Shown here: positions 10,463 through 18,585 of the stretch, piece after piece
How the letters are laid out: each line of letters opens with the position of its first letter
Position numbering within the stretch: position 1 is the first letter of the stretch
Assembly: GCF_000585395.1 (NCBI RefSeq)
Contig: NZ_KK073875.1
Location: 1,058,407-1,082,406 of the forward strand
Length of the DNA: 24,000 nt
Reading direction: 5' to 3'
Origin: Saccharibacillus sacchari DSM 19268
GTDB taxonomy: Bacteria; Bacillota; Bacilli; Paenibacillales; Paenibacillaceae
Notes under the pieces: model-generated
Databases searched by the model: none
What the model saw: the letters and a program-made list of their open reading frames with translations, nothing else
What the model was told of the DNA's origin: nothing
Translations under genes and position numbers: made by a program

Positions 10463-11260
10463 TTAAAGTTTGAAAAAAGCTTTCGCCGTCTCTGTCGTCT
10501 GTTCCATGACTAATTCTGCGCTTCTGCCCGTGCATTCCGCGACAGCACGCGCAATATGCGGCAGATAAATGGGCTCGTTCCGTCCGTCTTTCGGCTTTGG
10601 CACCAGATCGCGAGGCGTCAAAAACGGCGCGTCCGTCTCGATCATGAGCCGATCCGGCGGGATCAGGCGCACCAGCTCGCGCAGATGTTTGCCGCGGCGT
10701 TCGTCGCAGATCCAGCCCGTGATCCCGATATGCAGACCCATATCCAGATAAGCGCGCAGTTCCGCTTCCGTGCCGGTAAAACAATGCACCACGGCCGGAA
10801 GTTCGGCAGGCTTCATCCGGCGGATGATCCGCGCGAAGTCCTCGTGGGCGTCCCGTTCATGCAGGAACAGCGGCATCTCCAGCTCCTCTGCCAACTCGAC
10901 CTGCTTCGCGAACCATTCCAGCTGCGTGTCTCGCGGCGAGAAGTCGCGATTGTAATCCAGTCCGCATTCGCCGATCGCCACCACTTCATCTCCTGCTGCC
11001 AGGTCGCGGAGACTTTGCAGCGTGCGTTCGCCGCAGCTTTTCGCGTCATGCGGATGCACGCCTGCGGTTGCATAAAGCTGACCGGGATAACGTCGGGCAT
11101 AATCGGCGGCCGCTTCGCTGCTCCGCACGCTCGTCCCGGTGATAATCATGGGAGATACCCCCGCTTCAATCGCGGCTTGCACCACTTGCTCGCGGTCGTA
11201 ACCGAACGAGCGGTGCATCAGATTGATGCCGATATCGATTGTCTGTCGCAAAGATGACAT
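10463..11260 (-). CDS. tatD: TatD-family metal-dependent nuclease
   Basis: Collinear with my memory of E. coli TatD: IDIGINLMH, AGVHPHD, IGECGLDYNRDF, LFLHERDAHEDF, VVHCFTGT, IGITGWICDERRG, IETDAPFLTPRD, RNEP..LPHI. ATG 11260 has AAAGGAG 8 nt upstream; the ORF-track GTG at 11269 overlaps the RBS. Confidence 0.9.
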   Translation of the reverse strand: MSSLRQTIDIGINLMHRSFGYDREQVVQAAIEAGVSPMIITGTSVRSSEAAADYARRYPGQLYATAGVHPHDAKSCGERTLQSLRDLAAGDEVVAIGECGLDYNRDFSPRDTQLEWFAKQVELAEELEMPLFLHERDAHEDFARIIRRMKPAELPAVVHCFTGTEAELRAYLDMGLHIGITGWICDERRGKHLRELVRLIPPDRLMIETDAPFLTPRDLVPKPKDGRNEPIYLPHIARAVAECTGRSAELVMEQTTETAKAFFKL

Positions 11261-11319
11261 ATCCAACACTCCTTTTGCTGTTCATTGATCTGTACCTGAA
11301 TACGTCCAGCCTTATTCGT

Positions 11320-12021
11320 TTAACGCTTCGAGCGCGGCTCCGGCTTGTCTTCATAGGTCTCGTCCAGTTGGATCAGGTTGGGAGGAATACATTCAGCCAA
11401 CCAAACTTCGCTGCCCGCATCGTAAAAAATAATGCCTTCGTTCATTGCCGACGCGGAATCGATACGCAGCATGATGAGCTTACCCTTACGCCGTCCTGCC
11501 AATGCGGCAAAAGACGTTTCCGCCGACAGATGTACGTATTCCCGGCCCATGGGCAGCAGCCCGTGTTCTTCGATAGAAGGCAGCGCCTGTCGTCCCGTGC
11601 CGTGATACAGGACGGTCGGCGGCGTGCCTTGCGGATAAGTCACGCGTCCGAAACTATGACCGTAACGGGCGCGTATACGCGGCTCGGGCGCTTTTTCGGC
11701 CGATGCTCCCTTTTCCGCTTCGTCCACAGGCTCCAGGATTTCGAAACGCTGCTTGTCCGAACGACGCACCACGCCGCGAATGTCCTCTTCGGTCGTATCC
11801 GCGTAGCCGGTCCGGTTGCGGACGGCCGCCAATAGCTCGTCGAGTCCGCAAGATCCGTCTTCCGGATCAAGCGTCAGTCCGAAATCTTCCGGCGAATGCC
11901 GCAGCATCATGGACATCAGCTTGCTGATTTTTTTGTCCTGCTCGGCGGTCGACAACTTCGGTTCCCGGCTTTGTCCCCGGTAAGGATTGCCTCCGCCTTT
12001 GTTTTTATTGTTTTTGCTCAT
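11320..12021 (-). CDS. kptA: RNA 2'-phosphotransferase (Tpt1/KptA family)
   Basis: KISKLMSMMLRHSPEDFGLTLDPEDGSCGLDELL, then RFEI, RARYGHS, VLYHGT and VHLS motifs typical of Tpt1/KptA. RBS GAGGAGAA lies 8 nt upstream. Confidence 0.85.
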   Translation of the reverse strand: MSKNNKNKGGGNPYRGQSREPKLSTAEQDKKISKLMSMMLRHSPEDFGLTLDPEDGSCGLDELLAAVRNRTGYADTTEEDIRGVVRRSDKQRFEILEPVDEAEKGASAEKAPEPRIRARYGHSFGRVTYPQGTPPTVLYHGTGRQALPSIEEHGLLPMGREYVHLSAETSFAALAGRRKGKLIMLRIDSASAMNEGIIFYDAGSEVWLAECIPPNLIQLDETYEDKPEPRSKR

Positions 12022-12424: not shown

Positions 12425-13651
12425 TTAATCTTTATACGGATCAAACTCGTTCGCCCCTGCCATCGCGACGCCGATCGGCTTCAAGGTATGCAGCACGTCG
12501 ATCGTTTCCGAATGCGCGTCCAGCACCTCTTGAAGCTTCCGATATACAAAAGGACTCTCGTCCGTGCCCGCGCCTCTCAGCTCGACATCGAACTGCTTGA
12601 CCGCTTTCATCATGCGCTCTTCGGTAATCTCGCCGCCGATTCGCACACGCGTTTTCCAATTCATTTTCCCTGCGGCCTGCGTTCGGCTCATAATGCGACC
12701 TGCTCCATGCACCGTGCTGTAAAAGGACTCGCCGTTCTCCGCCGTGTTTTTCCCGCGCACGATCACCGAAATATCCGCCATGCTGCCTCCGATAAAACCG
12801 AGCTGACCCGGAGCCGAAGGCGTCGCTCCTTTGCGCACGACAATGCAGTCTTTGCCTTCGTGCTTTTCTTTCCAGGCGAAGTTGTGATGGTTGTGCACCT
12901 CGAAATCGCTTGTCGCGCCCAAAATACCCAACACCTGCTCGATGACGTAATCCCGCCCCGCATACGCGTAACGTCCGGCCAGCTTCATCGCGCGGTAGTA
13001 CATGTCGCCCGTCTCGCTATCGAGATCGAATAGTACAGGGGGCTGATCCATGCTTTCGCCCGGCGCTTTGCCCAAGAAATCGCGGCCCGCCGCCACGTTC
13101 AGGAACCCGCTCGCCGTTTTATGACCGAAGCCCCGGCTGCCGAAATGGTTTCCGATCCAGATCCGCCCCGTCGACGGCTCTTCGAAAATATCGACGTAAT
13201 GGTTGCCGCTGCCGACTGTGCCGAGTTGATCGCGCGCCAGCTTTTTCAGCTTGTCGTGCACATTGCCGCCGATCTGCCGATACACCGACCAGTCGGGATC
13301 GTCGAACAGCTCGTGATCCACCTTTTTCTGATTGACGCGGCCCACACCGAACTCCACGCTACGGGCGATCTGATCCATGACGGACTTGATGCGCGGTTTG
13401 ACGTCTTCGGCCATCAGGTTCGTGCGCACCGCTTTGTTGCCGCAGCCGATATCATAACCGACGCCGCTCGGGGAAATTTGCCCTTCGTACGCGAGGACGC
13501 CGCCGATCGGCTGGCTGTACCCTTTATGATGATCGGCCATCAGCAGCGCTTGCACCACGTTCCCATGGTATGCGCAGGTTTGAGCCTGCTTCAGCGCGCT
13601 TTCGTCCACTTTTCCCCATACCCTTACCTTATCTATCGTTTCGTAACTCAT
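12425..13651 (-). CDS. rtcB: RNA 3'-phosphate/5'-OH ligase RtcB
   Basis: 408 aa with MADHHKGYSQPIGGV, VGYDIGCGN, GSGNHYVDIF, GNHFGSRGFGH, HNHHNF and STVHGAGR (guanylyl-His region). The ATG overlaps the rsr stop (ATGA). Confidence 0.93.
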   Translation of the reverse strand: MSYETIDKVRVWGKVDESALKQAQTCAYHGNVVQALLMADHHKGYSQPIGGVLAYEGQISPSGVGYDIGCGNKAVRTNLMAEDVKPRIKSVMDQIARSVEFGVGRVNQKKVDHELFDDPDWSVYRQIGGNVHDKLKKLARDQLGTVGSGNHYVDIFEEPSTGRIWIGNHFGSRGFGHKTASGFLNVAAGRDFLGKAPGESMDQPPVLFDLDSETGDMYYRAMKLAGRYAYAGRDYVIEQVLGILGATSDFEVHNHHNFAWKEKHEGKDCIVVRKGATPSAPGQLGFIGGSMADISVIVRGKNTAENGESFYSTVHGAGRIMSRTQAAGKMNWKTRVRIGGEITEERMMKAVKQFDVELRGAGTDESPFVYRKLQEVLDAHSETIDVLHTLKPIGVAMAGANEFDPYKD

Positions 13652-15171
13652 GATGTTTCATTCCCTTCTTTTTCGTCCGCTAACCGATCCAAATCCATTC
13701 TCGCGACATGCGCACTCATGGAATCGAACCCGCGCGCCGCCGCCGAGATATAAGGCAGCACCTGATCGCTCCAGCCGTAGACGTAATGCGTGTTCAGGTC
13801 TTCCTTGGGCACCATCGCTCCGCGATACGGCGACAAATCGACGATGAACGCTTTGGCGTCGCGGTTGATTTTGGAACGATAACGCTGAAGTTCGGTATAA
13901 AAAGGACTGCCTTCGTTCTGCTGCTCGTCCGTCACGATAATGATCTGGTCGACGTTTTCCCGCAGCTCGTTCAGACGCCGCACCGGCAGGCCCGTATCCG
14001 TTCCGCCTCTGGCTTTGATCCGCGATGCTTGTCCCATGATGCTCGCGTTTCGCGAAGGCTGCGGGTCGTGCACTTCATGGTCAAAAGTGAGAAAAATCGA
14101 GCGTCCGCCCGTCTTTTTATACAGAGCCAAAGCGAAAACGGAACCCGTCCGCAAATAATCGCCTTCCATCGAACCCGAAATATCGAGCAGAATCGCGGTA
14201 CGGCCCGGCAGATCCGGCAGGCTGGCGAAGGTCAGATCGACGGCTTCGGCCAATGCTTCCTTGATGACCGGATGTTTCACCTGACCGTAAGCCGTGGCGA
14301 ACCGCAGCGGCAAAATCTTCGATTTGCGCAGCGCCGCCGCATCGTTCAGACGCTCGACCGCGTAGCGCAGATGCTGCGGATGCTCGAACAATCCTTCGCG
14401 CTCGAACGTGTTTAGATGGCGCAGCAGCGCGAAGATCGGCATCTGGTACAGCAGCGCTTCCCAGATTTTTTTGTTCGCCGTTACCGCTCCGGTCACCGTC
14501 TCGTACGGCAGCTTGCCTTCGCGGATCAGGCGGATGCGCGTTTTGTCTTTGCTCGCCTTTTTCAACTGTTCGACGGCTTGGATCTGCGGCAACCCTTCGA
14601 GCGTCGTCTCATGGCCGCGCAGATAACGGAACAGCGCCTGCTGGCGTTCGTCGGTTGGAATCGGATGCGCGGTCGCGATCGCGTCTCCCAAATTATACCC
14701 CCGACCGTGGCCGCCGTATTTGATCGCCCAATATTCCGACGTTTTTTGCAGGAAAGCCGCGATTTGCCGCTTAACCGCACGGCCTCCCTGACCCCGTCCC
14801 ATGCCGCGCAGAATCGTCAGGAAGTCGGACAGGTCGGGCGGAATCAGAACTAAGTGCAGGAATACTTTGCGGAATAGGTCAGGGCGCGCTTTGGACAGTA
14901 CCGCCAACCCGTAAATCGGCTGCAAACGCATAAAGCCTTTTGTTCTCGCGAACACCAGTGCCTTGGCCATGAATTCCGGGTTCAGCTCGACCATCGCTTC
15001 GTGCGTATCGGCAGCTTGAGCCAGCAGATCGTGAGCGTCCGCATAAAAGGTATTGCCGAGCGTGTTCGTCAGCAGCATCTGCACGTATTCTTCTTCGAAG
15101 CTGCGATTATGGGCACGGTACCCTTCGGCGTTGAACAGGGATTCGGTAAAACGTTGCACGGCACGACTCAT
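13648..15171 (-). CDS. rsr: Ro60-related protein Rsr (TROVE domain + vWA/MIDAS domain)
   Basis: TROVE-like LGNTFYAD, RTKGFMRLQPIYGLAVL, LRGMGRGQGGRAVKRQIA, WAIKYGGHGRGYNLGDAIATAHPIP. C-terminal vWA with the MIDAS motif LLDISGSM and RGGTDTG. RBS GAAGGAGG lies 8 nt upstream. Confidence 0.9.
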   Translation of the reverse strand: MSRAVQRFTESLFNAEGYRAHNRSFEEEYVQMLLTNTLGNTFYADAHDLLAQAADTHEAMVELNPEFMAKALVFARTKGFMRLQPIYGLAVLSKARPDLFRKVFLHLVLIPPDLSDFLTILRGMGRGQGGRAVKRQIAAFLQKTSEYWAIKYGGHGRGYNLGDAIATAHPIPTDERQQALFRYLRGHETTLEGLPQIQAVEQLKKASKDKTRIRLIREGKLPYETVTGAVTANKKIWEALLYQMPIFALLRHLNTFEREGLFEHPQHLRYAVERLNDAAALRKSKILPLRFATAYGQVKHPVIKEALAEAVDLTFASLPDLPGRTAILLDISGSMEGDYLRTGSVFALALYKKTGGRSIFLTFDHEVHDPQPSRNASIMGQASRIKARGGTDTGLPVRRLNELRENVDQIIIVTDEQQNEGSPFYTELQRYRSKINRDAKAFIVDLSPYRGAMVPKEDLNTHYVYGWSDQVLPYISAAARGFDSMSAHVARMDLDRLADEKEGNETS

Positions 15172-15251
15172 GTCGATGGCCTCCTTCGGATGTTGGACTG
15201 CTTATATTGGATTGTTGGTAAGGGAAACGGATCGTTGTGCTGCTCACACGT

Positions 15252-15436: not shown

Positions 15437-15604
15437 CGTGTTCGGTTAGTACTAGGGCATGTCCGAAGAAAAAGGTGGAAAGGAACAAGCTGCTCTACCG
15501 CTGAGCTATTCCGCCGCGCATGGCGGAAACCGGATTCGAACCGGCGACCTGCCGATTAAAAGTCGAAGTAACCCTTCCTGGCGCCTCGGACAATTCCGAT
15601 CACG
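15437..15604 (-). ncRNA. yrlA: Bacterial Y RNA (YrlA-like) with permuted tRNA-like module
   Basis: Reading the minus strand:
- Basal stems: CGUGAUCGG(15604-15596) pairs with CCGAACACG(15445-15437); UGUCCGAGG(15592-15584) pairs with CUUCGGACA(15468-15460).
- Variable loop: AGGUC.
- T-arm: GCCGG-UUCGAAU-CCGGU(15545-15529).
- Acceptor-like stem: 7 bp, UUCCGCC/GGCGGAA, closed by loop AUGCGC(15528-15509).
- D-arm: UA, then GCUC-AGCGGUA-GAGC(15506-15492).
- Position: 265 nt upstream of rsr on the same strand.
- Ends are approximate. Confidence 0.75.
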
Positions 15605-15815
15605 TTCAAAGCCGTTTGGCCTCGCCGCTCTCGTTTGCCTGGGTTCATCTTCGCATGGCCGGAGGGACTTCAACAGGGCGAAAGTATGGCAAACGGCAAA
15701 AATGCAGGGAAGATCCATTATTTTTGGACAGCGGTAACTTAACTCGATCGGATTGCGTTCAAGAAATAATCATTCGAATTTTGACCTTGATCTTCAATAA
15801 AGGGATGTGTATACC

Positions 15816-16196
15816 ATGTTCAAAAAGAAACGTCTCGCCTGGACAACCGCCATTCTTCTCGCCGTGATCCTGAGCGGCATTTTGGTTTTTCGTTCGGTGC
15901 TGGACATGAACGAATCCGAACTGTCGACAGCCGAAATCGCGTTCAATCAGGTGGAATTGACGCCTAATGCTCTGAGAATCAGCGGAACGCTGGTGGCCAG
16001 CGCATTGAGCTATCGGGATTGCGAATACGAACAGGACGGCAGCAATCTGTACATCACGCTGCAAGGCGGATTGGTCACGAAAAAACATCCCGACGGCGAT
16101 TTCGACATTTCGATCCGAAACGACGATTTCTCGAAGGTCGACCGTGTCTATCTCAAGCACGGGGAAGATCATGTTCTGATTTACCCGCAGCGCTGA
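15816..16196 (+). CDS. Small membrane-anchored/secreted hypothetical protein
   Basis: MFKKKRLAWTTAILLAVILSGILVF is an N-terminal TM/signal anchor, followed by a beta-rich region of about 100 aa. AAGGGA lies 10 nt before ATG 15816; the ORF-track GTG at 15807 abuts the RBS. Confidence 0.6.
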   Translation: MFKKKRLAWTTAILLAVILSGILVFRSVLDMNESELSTAEIAFNQVELTPNALRISGTLVASALSYRDCEYEQDGSNLYITLQGGLVTKKHPDGDFDISIRNDDFSKVDRVYLKHGEDHVLIYPQR

Positions 16197-16308
16197 AAAG
16201 ATCATGCACGAAGCCGATCAAGCCATACGTCTTCCGTTCGCCATACTTGCGCCCTTTCCCCCACCCTCCCTTTCCGTTTAAAATATCCGTACCTGCAACA
16301 CCCGGATT

Positions 16309-16367: not shown

Positions 16368-17654
16368 ATGGCCAAAGAAAGTTTCGACAAAGAGATCCAG
16401 TTCCTGCGCCTGCTTGCCCTGACCGGAGGCGGTTATGATCGGCAGCAGTTCGCGGGACGCCTCGGCATCTCGGTACATACCTTCGACAAAACGGTCCGCA
16501 AACTGCGCGAGATCAGCGGAGACGCGGATTTTGCCGACCTGTTCCGCTACGGATATGCCGATTCGGCCGAGCCGGTGCTGCTGTTCTTGTACCGCGCCAA
16601 GTCGATGAAGGAATCGGAAAGCCGCCGCCTGCCGCTCATCCTGACCGCGCTCAAAGGCACGCCGCAGACCGCCGCCGAGCTGCTCGACGCCTGCTGCGAG
16701 CGCCTGCCCCTGGATGCCGCCATGCCGGACGAGAAAACGATCCGTTCCGACCTGCGTTATCTGGAAGAGATCGGCGTCGTGCGGCGCGAACCAGGCGGTC
16801 GTCCATACCGATATGTGTTGAACAACGACCTGACCGACTGCCTGTCCCAAAAAGAACTGATCGATCTCTACGAGTTCGTCGATATCATGGCTAACACGCA
16901 GATTCCTTCCGTTCAAGGATACCTACTGCGCGACAATCTCAAAAAAGCGCTCAAATCCGCCGTACCCGAAGAAGAGTGGGACGACGGTCTACTGGAGCCT
17001 TTTTCCTATAAATATCATTACGACGCGCGCATTCTGGACGAAGCCCATCTGTACACGCTGCTTCGAACCATCCATCTGCGCAAACGCATCTCGTTCCAAT
17101 ACTTTTCGCCGAAAAATCGCAAAAGCTACTCGGCCAAAGAAACCAATCCCCTGTTCGGCCGCGAAACGGAGGTTCGACGCGAAAGTACGCTGCCGCTTAA
17201 GGTCGTGTACGATCATCAATACGGCAGATGGTATCTGATCGGTGCCGCCGCCAAAGGTCGTTTCGTCAAGTTCCGCATGGAGGGCATGATCGATATTGCG
17301 GAAGAGCAGGAAGCGCCGGACGAATATTTCGCGCTCAAAAAGCAGCAGCTCGACGAACAAATGCGCCACAGTTGGCTGATCGATACCGGCGAGACCGTCA
17401 CGGTACGCGCCAAGTTCTACCGTCCTCGCGGACAAGCCGACTTCATCGCGGAACGCGTGCGGCTGCAGGGCCAATGGGGGCAGATCGTGGAGGAGAACGA
17501 AGACTTCTTCATCTATGAGATTCAAGTCAACGGCGTAACGGAAATCCGGCCGTGGCTGCGGGGGTTCGGGTCGAGCTGCGAAGTGCTGGCACCCGCGGAT
17601 TTGAGACAGTCGTTCATCGACGAATGGAAGGAGATCGGAGACTATTATGAATAA
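16368..17654 (+). CDS. HTH + WYL + WCX domain transcriptional regulator (PafB/PafC-like architecture)
   Basis: N-terminal HTH-like segment (LGISVHTFDKTVRKLREI) and a winged-helix-like segment (TAAELLDAC...IRSDLRYLEEIGVVRREPGGRPYRYVL). WYL core ISFQYFS...LKVVYDHQYGRWYLIGAAAKGRFVKFRMEGMIDI. C-terminal WCX-like IRPWLRGFGSSCEVLAPADLRQSF. Confidence 0.75.
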   Translation: MAKESFDKEIQFLRLLALTGGGYDRQQFAGRLGISVHTFDKTVRKLREISGDADFADLFRYGYADSAEPVLLFLYRAKSMKESESRRLPLILTALKGTPQTAAELLDACCERLPLDAAMPDEKTIRSDLRYLEEIGVVRREPGGRPYRYVLNNDLTDCLSQKELIDLYEFVDIMANTQIPSVQGYLLRDNLKKALKSAVPEEEWDDGLLEPFSYKYHYDARILDEAHLYTLLRTIHLRKRISFQYFSPKNRKSYSAKETNPLFGRETEVRRESTLPLKVVYDHQYGRWYLIGAAAKGRFVKFRMEGMIDIAEEQEAPDEYFALKKQQLDEQMRHSWLIDTGETVTVRAKFYRPRGQADFIAERVRLQGQWGQIVEENEDFFIYEIQVNGVTEIRPWLRGFGSSCEVLAPADLRQSFIDEWKEIGDYYE

Positions 17655-18585
17655 TCCTTTCGAAAAAATATTCAACTACCAGCTCTCCTCGCGGCTTGAA
17701 GAAACGGGCGTCTACACGCTCACGTCGCAAGAACGCTCCTGGCTGAAGTCGATGCTGGAGCATCCGGCGGCGCACGAAGCTCTGGAGCCGCGCACGATCG
17801 CCAAACTGCAAGAGTGCGTGCTGGACGACGAAATCTCGAATCTGCTGGACGGACTGGAGCAAAAAGCGGGCAGCCTTGAAACCCAAATCGTCCATCCGCT
17901 GCTGTCTCCGATCCGCCGCATCCTGCGCAACCGTCAAGGAATGACCATCCAATGCCGCACCAAGAAAGGAAAGCTCAACGAGCCTCAGCCGGGCATTCCG
18001 TACAAGCTGGAGTATTCGATGGTCAAACGCGAATGGTATCTGCACTGGTACAATTCGTCGACGCGCTCGATCCTGCATACGCGGCTGTGCCATATCGTGT
18101 CGGTGGAGCAGTCGCGCGTATCCCGTACCTCTTACGAAGAACAAACGGTTCGCGCGCAGAAGCTGTTCGAAGCGCCGCGGCACGAAGCCGTCGTCGAGGT
18201 GATCCGCACGTTTAACGCCGAACTGACGCGGATTCTGCATGCTTTTTCCTGCTTCGATAAAAAGGTCGAGTTCGACGAGGAAGAACGGACCTACCGGATT
18301 CACCTGACGTTTACCGATAGCGAAGGCCAATTCGTGCTGACCAAGCTGCGTTTTCTGGGCAAGCGGGTCCGCGTCGTGGAGGGAAATTACCTGAAATACC
18401 GGATGCGGGAAACGGCGAGGAAGGCGTTGGCGCTGTATGGAGTGGAAGGAGCGAACGCGGTCGAAACTTCGGACAGCGATCAAAGCAAAGCAGCCGAAGG
18501 CTCGGCGGATGCGCAAAAGGCGGAGCAATCTTCGAACTCGAAAAACGCTGCCGATATCATCGCTCGAACGAAAATTCCGGGCTGA
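17647..18585 (+). CDS. WYL + WCX domain protein without an obvious HTH (partner of the upstream regulator)
   Basis: The ATG overlaps the upstream stop by 8 nt (ATGAATAA), with GGAG 6 nt upstream. WYL-like PYKLEYSMVKREWYLHWYNSSTRSILHTRLCHIVSVE and WCX-like KLRFLGKRVRVVEGNYLKYRM. Ends in a low-complexity Ser/Ala/Glu tail. Confidence 0.65.
   Translation: MNNPFEKIFNYQLSSRLEETGVYTLTSQERSWLKSMLEHPAAHEALEPRTIAKLQECVLDDEISNLLDGLEQKAGSLETQIVHPLLSPIRRILRNRQGMTIQCRTKKGKLNEPQPGIPYKLEYSMVKREWYLHWYNSSTRSILHTRLCHIVSVEQSRVSRTSYEEQTVRAQKLFEAPRHEAVVEVIRTFNAELTRILHAFSCFDKKVEFDEEERTYRIHLTFTDSEGQFVLTKLRFLGKRVRVVEGNYLKYRMRETARKALALYGVEGANAVETSDSDQSKAAEGSADAQKAEQSSNSKNAADIIARTKIPG

Follow-up and report, generated by a model that had tools for sequence, protein, structure and literature searches.

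A probable YrlA-class Y RNA with a circularly permuted tRNA-like domain upstream of rsr in Saccharibacillus sacchari

A 24,000-nucleotide (nt) stretch of the Saccharibacillus sacchari DSM 19268 genome (contig NZ_KK073875.1, positions 1,058,407 to 1,082,406; here called the window, with positions counted from its first nucleotide) contains a structured element on the minus strand, upstream of rsr, the gene encoding an orthologue of the RNA-binding protein Ro60. Sequence features, family similarity, covariation, and synteny indicate, with a probability of about 90%, that the segment encodes a YrlA-class Y RNA of Saccharibacillus. To judge from its sequence, the apical part has the build of a circularly permuted tRNA and keeps the nucleotides of the L-shaped fold, including the equivalents of U8:A14, G15:C48, G18G19, and the T-loop. 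An earlier note, read from the sequence, gave the full span, including an outer helix, as positions 15437 to 15604. The conserved YrlA-type core, comprising the basal helices P1 and P2 and the tRNA-like domain, occupies positions 15458 to 15594, as judged from Rfam family RF02553, our own covariance models, and covariation.

YrlA RNAs have been defined by proximity to a Ro60 gene (within 4 kb, same strand), a 5' GNCGAAN0-1G motif, a YUAY sequence, and the order of an optional V arm, a T arm, a closed acceptor stem, a UA dinucleotide, and a D arm (PMC4201824). In the window element, UUAC at positions 15571 to 15568 corresponds to the YUAY of YrlA RNAs in the homologue alignment and in that study, and it precedes the hairpin CGA-CUUUUAA-UCG (15565 to 15553), the "V" arm of the literature, which lies upstream of the T arm. 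The hairpin is followed by GC at 15552 to 15551, which pairs with GC at 15490 to 15489. Next come the 5-nt variable loop AGGUC (15550 to 15546, with the C48 equivalent at 15546), the T arm GCCGG-UUCGAAU-CCGGU (15545 to 15529), the capped acceptor-like stem UUCCGCC-AUGCGC-GGCGGAA (15528 to 15509), a U8-A9-like UA (15508 to 15507), and the D arm GCUC-AGCGGUA-GAGC (15506 to 15492). The T arm lies 5' of the D arm, with the capped acceptor-like stem and then UA between them, and the two acceptor strands are joined by the 6-nt loop AUGCGC. Each part from the variable loop to the D arm, as well as the permuted tRNA order with a closed acceptor stem, had been described in the earlier note and was found where that note placed it; the hairpin had not been described there.

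The neighboring gene fits the definition of the family. The rsr gene (13648 to 15171, minus strand) starts 265 nt downstream of the element on the same strand and encodes a 507-amino-acid (aa) protein with Pfam TROVE and vWA_Ro60 domains, which matches the NCBIfam Rsr model (E = 2e-23) and the Deinococcus radiodurans Rsr structure (PDB 2NVO; E = 1.4e-20), aligning nearly full length to the latter, and is 96% identical to the Rsr of Saccharibacillus endophyticus. The proposed adjacency of a Y RNA and rsr is borne out by this arrangement. When the element was compared with Rfam at permissive thresholds, the best match was YrlA (RF02553), which aligned over its full length (model positions 1 to 114) with 42.5 bits and an E value of 4.3e-8. 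This is the outcome of the covariance-model search that the earlier note had proposed, and together with the published YrlA features it supports the YrlA-type layout, although the score does not reach 69, the gathering score of YrlA. Relative to the model, the element has 15 additional nt between the 5' stem strand and the T arm, and this insertion is the published V arm.

Several observations weigh against the assignment. Like the element itself, every relative tested scores below the YrlA gathering score (32 to 54 bits, and 38.8 to 53.9 bits for the Paenibacillaceae relatives). The published 5' motif GNCGAAN0-1G is only approximated, with UCCGAGG in the window and the consensus YGAGGCG in the clade, the CGA core being common. 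The single-sequence folding energy is ordinary (z = -1.36), an uninformative value, and single-sequence folding was rejected as evidence. Moreover, one congener (L005) has a disrupted copy, so the element is dispensable at least there. The gathering score is a curated annotation cutoff and not a biological feature. Because the element scores below it, an Rfam scan at gathering thresholds gives no match for the element, which is left unannotated by default. The Y_RNA model (RF00019) also gave no match at E values of up to 10 between positions 15200 and 15800. With the Rfam tRNA model the score is 24.9 bits, short of the gathering score of 29, and it is reached only by taking the insertion for an anticodon arm and skipping the D arm. 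ARAGORN reports no tRNA gene in the window, in agreement with the expectation that tRNA finders would miss the locus, and with its permuted arm order and capped acceptor stem the element does not qualify as a genuine tRNA.

Homologues of the element carry the argument further. A covariance model (R1) was built from nine Saccharibacillus copies; the window element scores 153.5 bits with R1 and 140.9 bits with a second model (R2), with own-model E values of about 1e-33. Full-length homologues scoring 54 to 171 bits with R1 are found in Paenibacillus, Cohnella, Brevibacillus, Gorillibacterium, and metagenomic and viral loci, and the Rsr proteins encoded at the homologue loci are as little as ~25 to 35% identical. 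In every related locus examined, the homologues lie upstream of rsr on the same strand. One scan of a genome collection with a single protein gave only Saccharibacillus, and the wider relatives were obtained by metagenome and viral scans and by exact-protein look-ups. The main covariation test used 33 matches in an alignment fitted to the model. Standard pairs occupy 97.0% of the paired cells, compared with 74.3% in shuffles, and both partners have changed in 31 of the 37 pairs. The covariation score reaches 0.613, compared with 0.176 for shuffles, none of 500 of which reaches the observed value, and 0.065 to 0.122 for controls with slid partners. Since this alignment had been fitted to the model, covariation was retested with 16 diverse copies aligned simply by MAFFT, for which RNAalifold, without being given a structure, recovered P1, P2, and the T, acceptor-like, and D stems, with 20 of 32 pairs covarying. 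When the full structure was imposed on the same alignment, 95.6% of cells were paired, and the covariation score was 0.625, compared with 0.185 for shuffles.

The individual helices differ in how they vary across the 33 copies. The capped acceptor-like stem shows double changes in all seven of its pairs, with 98.6% of its cells paired. P1 shows double changes in seven of nine pairs, while G8, G11, and their partners are invariant, and six of the seven P2 pairs show compensatory changes, such as that from GGAAGGG/CCUUUCC to GAGAGGG/CCUUCUC. Three of the five T-stem pairs covary, and the T-loop reads UUCRARU in all copies. Almost no variation is seen in the D stem, and GG is retained in the D loop. 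The equivalent of the tertiary (Levitt) pair 15:48 is G:C in 26 copies and A:U in 4, and both the UA dinucleotide and the U8:A14 equivalent are present in 32. The sequence UUACUU, which contains the YUAY, is found in 21 copies, and the broader form [ACU]UACUU is found in 27. The core helices listed in the earlier note are therefore supported by covariation among rsr-upstream homologues in both alignments, with the exception of the outer helix. Because compensatory changes preserve the helices across distant lineages, the permuted fold appears to be under selection.

These data also bear on two ways in which the likeness to YrlA could be misleading. The modest folding energy and the lack of an Rfam match at the gathering threshold are what a chance likeness to tRNA and YrlA motifs in ordinary intergenic DNA would produce, but the E values with the YrlA model and with our own models, the homologues in dozens of loci, and a covariation score that no shuffle attains refute this explanation, whose probability we regard as negligible. 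The element could instead be the decayed, functionless remnant of a pair of tRNA genes in tandem: such tandem genes in L059 (1858 to 1941) score 53.7 bits against the tRNA-like part of the model, the Y RNAs of Cohnella and Gorillibacterium have tRNA clusters immediately upstream, and BLAST searches with the element match real tRNA-Asn and tRNA-Lys genes. A remnant of this kind is hard to reconcile with compensatory changes that hold P1, P2, the capped stem, and the hairpin across lineages whose Rsr proteins are ~25 to 60% identical, with acceptor strands joined by only a 6-nt loop, or with the failure of ARAGORN to find a tRNA. Covariation effectively refutes a decayed remnant, which is very improbable, and a YrlA-class RNA remains the preferred assignment.

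The basal stem of this RNA contains the putative Rsr-binding module. P1 is formed by UGUCCGAGG (15592 to 15584) and CUUCGGACA (15468 to 15460), which pair over 9 bp, one of them G-U, exactly as proposed in the earlier note. P2 is formed by GGAAGGG (15578 to 15572) and CCUUUCC (15483 to 15477); this pairing had been proposed with a bulge, which is unnecessary, as the helix is continuous over 7 bp, including one G-U. P1 and P2 are separated by a conserved asymmetric internal loop with GAGGCGC on its 5' side and a U-rich UUUUCCUC-type strand on its 3' side; in the window, the U-rich strand and the P1 3' strand read ACCUUUUU-CUUCGGACA (15476 to 15460), and the UUUUCCUC-type block is kept across homologues. 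On the 5' side, GAGGCG (15587 to 15582) is near-invariant, being present in 29 of the 33 copies, and is a conserved candidate for the Rsr-binding motif. By analogy with characterized Y RNAs, the P1-loop-P2 unit may be the docking site of Rsr. The earlier note had singled out a different sequence, GUCCGA, as resembling the Ro-binding strand of metazoan Y RNAs. This identification does not hold: the nucleotides 5' of CGA/UGA change in concert with the 3' strand, so GUCCGA itself varies among homologues, and the near-invariant block is GAGGCG with the UUUUCCUC-type strand opposite.

Outside P1, the proposed outer helix between CGUGAUCGG (15604 to 15596) and CCGAACACG (15445 to 15437) is present in the window with its single A-A mismatch, but it is not conserved. 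Its two strands were rejected as part of the conserved RNA: the closest relative, L001, has two uncompensated changes, and across the flanks of the 33 homologues duplex energies are mostly no better than those of shuffles (median z, -0.37). The outer helix is therefore a lineage-specific feature only.

The region between P2 and the T arm differs from what was first read. According to the earlier note, the anticodon arm was replaced by long-range pairing. The hairpin at 15565 to 15553 is a local structure with a 7-nt anticodon-like loop, and its 3' strand runs without a gap into the GC whose partner lies just 3' of the D arm. Covariation is seen in the 33-copy and the 16-copy alignments for the hairpin pairs as well as for the two long-range pairs, and the two sets together form a split 5-bp stem with a 7-nt loop, the 5' strand of which is nicked where the Rsr-binding stalk exits. 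The loop is 7 nt long in 25 of the 33 copies; among these, position 2 is U in 24, position 6 is a purine in all, and position 7 is A in all, while the middle three bases are variable among close relatives (UUU, UCU, CUU, GUU, and others). BLAST searches against phage and plasmid records matched real tRNA-Asn and tRNA-Lys genes (92 to 95% identity over 36 to 43 nt), with the hairpin falling on the true anticodon arm and the UUU of the window falling on the tRNA-Lys anticodon. In view of the covarying pairs, the loop signature, and these alignments, the anticodon arm has not been wholly replaced. The hairpin is the stem-loop that Chen et al. 2014 (PMC4201824) named "V".

After de-permutation of the tRNA-like domains, ARAGORN called 26 of the 33 as tRNAs, with the window sequence called tRNA-Lys(UUU), but it also called 72% (237/330) of the controls with shuffled hairpins. 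The call rate is not specific evidence and was rejected as such, and the case for an anticodon arm is drawn only from the statistics on pairs and loop and from the BLAST matches to genuine tRNA genes. Tentatively, and with considerable doubt, the V arm in this Bacillota clade may be a retained anticodon arm, in which case the RNA would be a complete four-arm tRNA mimic with a functional loop. The stalk would then exit via a nick between positions 28 and 29, and the loop would carry U33 (24/25), R37 (25/25), and A38 (25/25). The 7-nt loop holds the signature of an anticodon loop while its three middle bases drift. If correct, a four-arm mimic located ahead of genes for RtcB and Tpt1 (and Hen1-Pnkp in relatives) could be a decoy, a sensor, or a sacrificial substrate for anticodon nucleases. 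It would also provide direct sequence evidence that YrlA originated from a tandem tRNA transcript; an anticodon-like arm fits the model of a dimeric-tRNA origin that Wang et al. 2018 quote (bioRxiv 10.1101/312249).

A second, YrlB-like RNA is located directly 3' of YrlA (15433 to 15328, minus strand; R2 score of 25.2 bits and E value of ~1e-4 in the window), between YrlA and rsr. It has the same P1/P2 module, formed by GCCGACGAGG/CUUCGCCGGC and GGAGAGG/CCUUCUCC, and a weak T-arm-like hairpin, and it has neither an acceptor-like stem nor a D arm. Its position and its Rsr-type basal stem are those of a YrlB-like RNA. Orthologues are present in eight other Saccharibacillus genomes, compared with which the window copy is degraded in one P1 pair (A-C) and in the T stem. 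The wider CCGGCGAGG type of the second RNA covaries across genera (12 of 24 pairs in 12 copies, T arm included). Conservation of the sequence 3' of the second RNA is limited to close relatives.

Related Paenibacillaceae loci contain up to three tandem Y RNAs, and the P1/P2 module recurs two to seven times in arrays. Paenibacillus hunanensis (L062) has two full tandem YrlA copies (1630 to 1767 and 1834 to 1970). On a 224-kb viral contig (L046), seven tandem Y-like matches, three or four of which have full tRNA-like domains, lie upstream of a viral Rsr gene (836 to 2361). In Cohnella soli, Gorillibacterium, and a metagenomic relative (L059, 1722 to 1983; L060, 1133 to 1453; L012, 939 to 1410), the Y RNA array is closely preceded by a same-strand cluster of three to five ordinary tRNA genes, and the junctions between these genes score as partial YrlA matches. 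Three such matches (L059, 1858 to 1941; L060, 1259 to 1319; and L012, 1287 to 1363) were considered as free-standing permuted tRNAs and rejected, as they are ordinary tandem tRNA junctions that have no P1/P2. Chen et al. 2014 warned of tandem tRNA junctions as false YrlA matches (PMC4201824).

Two loci contain related insertions of ~100 nt (L001, ~2712 to 2820; L005, ~2597 to 2700) with the common core TACGCCCGTCTGA(A/T)TC. In S. endophyticus the insertion lies inside the T-loop of the second Y RNA, and in Saccharibacillus sp. CPCC 101409 it replaces the P2 5' strand, the V and T arms, and the acceptor-like stem of YrlA, with the D arm and the 3' strands remaining. The L005 insertion folds into a near-perfect long hairpin (-63.9 kcal/mol, z = -9.3). 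These insertions look like a small palindromic mobile element that targets or tolerates Y RNAs; no such insertion is present in the window.

Downstream of rsr, the minus strand encodes RtcB (12425 to 13651), a Tpt1/KptA 2'-phosphotransferase (11320 to 12021), and a TatD-family nuclease (10463 to 11269), all assigned by Pfam. On the plus strand, a pair of overlapping genes encodes WYL-domain proteins of 428 aa (16368 to 17654) and 312 aa (17647 to 18585), supported by Pfam WYL and WCX matches and by PADLOC WYL matches to both. Most related loci have a WYL/WCX gene followed by a gene of ~270 to 300 aa, divergent from the unit of Y RNA and rsr. The nine named loci from Paenibacillus, Brevibacillus, Cohnella, and Gorillibacterium (L056 to L064) have a WYL/WCX gene divergent from rsr, which is followed by RlaP, RtcB, Hen1-Pnkp, Tpt1, or TatD in varying combinations. 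This gene layout suggests that the WYL pair is likely the operon regulator. The tandem WYL arrangement recalls that of the PafB/PafC pair.

A putative promoter or operator lies upstream of the element on the minus strand, consisting of TTTGCCATACTTTCGCCCTGTT (15693 to 15672), a spacer of ~16 to 17 nt, and the extended -10-like sequence TGCGAAGAT (15655 to 15647). The TTTGCCATACTTTCGCCCTGTT block is conserved in eight Saccharibacillus loci, and it occurs together with the spacer and TGCGAA(G/T)AT in eight further Saccharibacillus loci (L001, L002, and L004 to L009) and in P. hunanensis (L062). From its conservation, the block from 15693 to 15647 may be a promoter, perhaps with a regulator site, with a predicted transcription start near 15640. 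A generic sigma-70 scan did not flag this block and gave no promoter for the element. A small conserved hairpin, GGCC-NNNN-GGCY, follows the promoter-like block (15620 to 15609). In the rsr 5' leader (15282 to 15243, minus strand), AGACGUUCAU and AUGAACGUCU form a 10-bp hairpin with a loop of ~19 nt, behind which there is no U-tract. Between the element and the WYL genes, positions 15759 to 16205 contain two overlapping open reading frames of 148 aa (minus strand) and 129 aa (plus strand). The 148-aa frame was rejected as an upstream gene of the operon, as it has no Pfam match; the overlapping plus-strand frame (ATG near 15822 to 16196, beginning MFKKKRLAWTTAILLAVILSG), which has a ribosome-binding site, looks like a gene for a small signal- or membrane-anchored protein and is probably the true gene here, running divergently from the Y RNAs.

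The position of the two RNAs raises the question of whether they function as separate molecules. The minus strand showed no terminator-like site separating the Y RNAs from rsr, the predicted promoter is upstream of both RNAs, and the elements are always same-strand neighbors immediately 5' of rsr, all of which would be expected of a cis-acting structured leader of the rsr-rtcB mRNA, serving as a tRNA-like sensor or as a processing or stability element, instead of a separate stable small RNA. However, Y RNAs in a similar position in Mycobacterium smegmatis and D. radiodurans are cut from polycistronic precursors and bind Rsr separately (PMC4201824), the homologous RNAs of Salmonella lie downstream of rsr (PMC7790460), and P1/P2 closes each unit independently and is repeated in the arrays, which fits discrete ribonucleoproteins better. 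A cis-acting leader is therefore considered improbable. In the best-supported view, the Y RNA is most likely transcribed from the conserved promoter-like block ~48 nt upstream, under the putative control of the divergent WYL pair, as part of a precursor that would carry both Y RNAs and the rsr-rtcB-tpt1-tatD RNA-repair genes. By analogy with the systems described in PMC4201824 and PMC7790460, the Y RNAs would be processed out of this precursor and bind Rsr via the P1-loop-P2 module, and the RNA might tether or gate Rsr. The conserved tRNA-like elbow of the L-shaped mimic may in turn recruit a putative tRNA-binding effector.

The YrlA class is already known, and our current picture of Y RNAs is unchanged by this finding, which, supported by covariation, extends the class to Saccharibacillus and to Paenibacillaceae more widely. 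The Rfam gathering threshold misses every copy tested in this family, and genome annotations will therefore lack the Paenibacillaceae YrlA RNAs. The loci hold arrays of two to three Y RNAs, and seven on one viral contig, and in the named Paenibacillaceae loci checked the arrays adjoin a divergent WYL regulator instead of RtcR. A clade with an anticodon-like arm in its tRNA mimic bears on the evolution of YrlA from tRNA and on effector recognition.

Compared with known systems, the element is most readily placed beside YrlA (RF02553; Chen et al. 2014, RNA 20:1715; PDB 6CU1), with which it shares the same-strand rsr neighbor, the operon with rtcB, the basal stem with a CGA-containing 5' motif, the YUAY, the order of V arm, T arm, capped acceptor stem, UA, and D arm, and the tRNA tertiary nucleotides, including the covarying 15:48 pair. 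In place of the published YrlA motif GNCGAAN0-1G, the element has GAGGCG as its putative Rsr motif. In Salmonella YrlA (PDB 6CU1; Wang et al. 2018), there is no anticodon loop, and the anticodon stem passes straight into the Rsr module, whereas in Saccharibacillus only 2 bp of this stem are long range and the other 3 bp and the 7-nt loop come from the local hairpin. The Salmonella Y RNAs also lie downstream of rsr (operon rsr-yrlBA-rtcBA; PMC7790460), while the Saccharibacillus element lies upstream, and a WYL pair is found here where Salmonella has RtcR.

The arrangement of the two RNAs matches that of M. smegmatis YrlA and YrlB (Chen et al. 2014), in which two Y RNAs also lie upstream of rsr, the first with a full tRNA-like domain and the second with a T arm only, and are carried with rsr on one precursor (PMC4201824). 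YrlA of M. smegmatis undergoes RNase P cleavage and acquires CCA, whereas the Saccharibacillus acceptor-like stem is capped by its 6-nt loop. Permuted tRNA genes, such as those of Cyanidioschyzon merolae and others cited in Wang et al. 2018, are alike in having the 3' half first and an initially closed acceptor stem. However, they are precursors to functional tRNAs, whereas the permuted tRNA here sits in a long, putatively Rsr-binding stem and has no CCA end, and its "anticodon" varies freely among close relatives. Metazoan Y RNAs (RF00019) and D. radiodurans Yrn1 share the long terminal stem for Ro60 or Rsr, here a putative site. Metazoan Y RNAs, which are marked by a conserved GGUCCGA bulged helix, have no tRNA-like module, and the GUCCGA that seemed to link them to the window copy is there only by happenstance.

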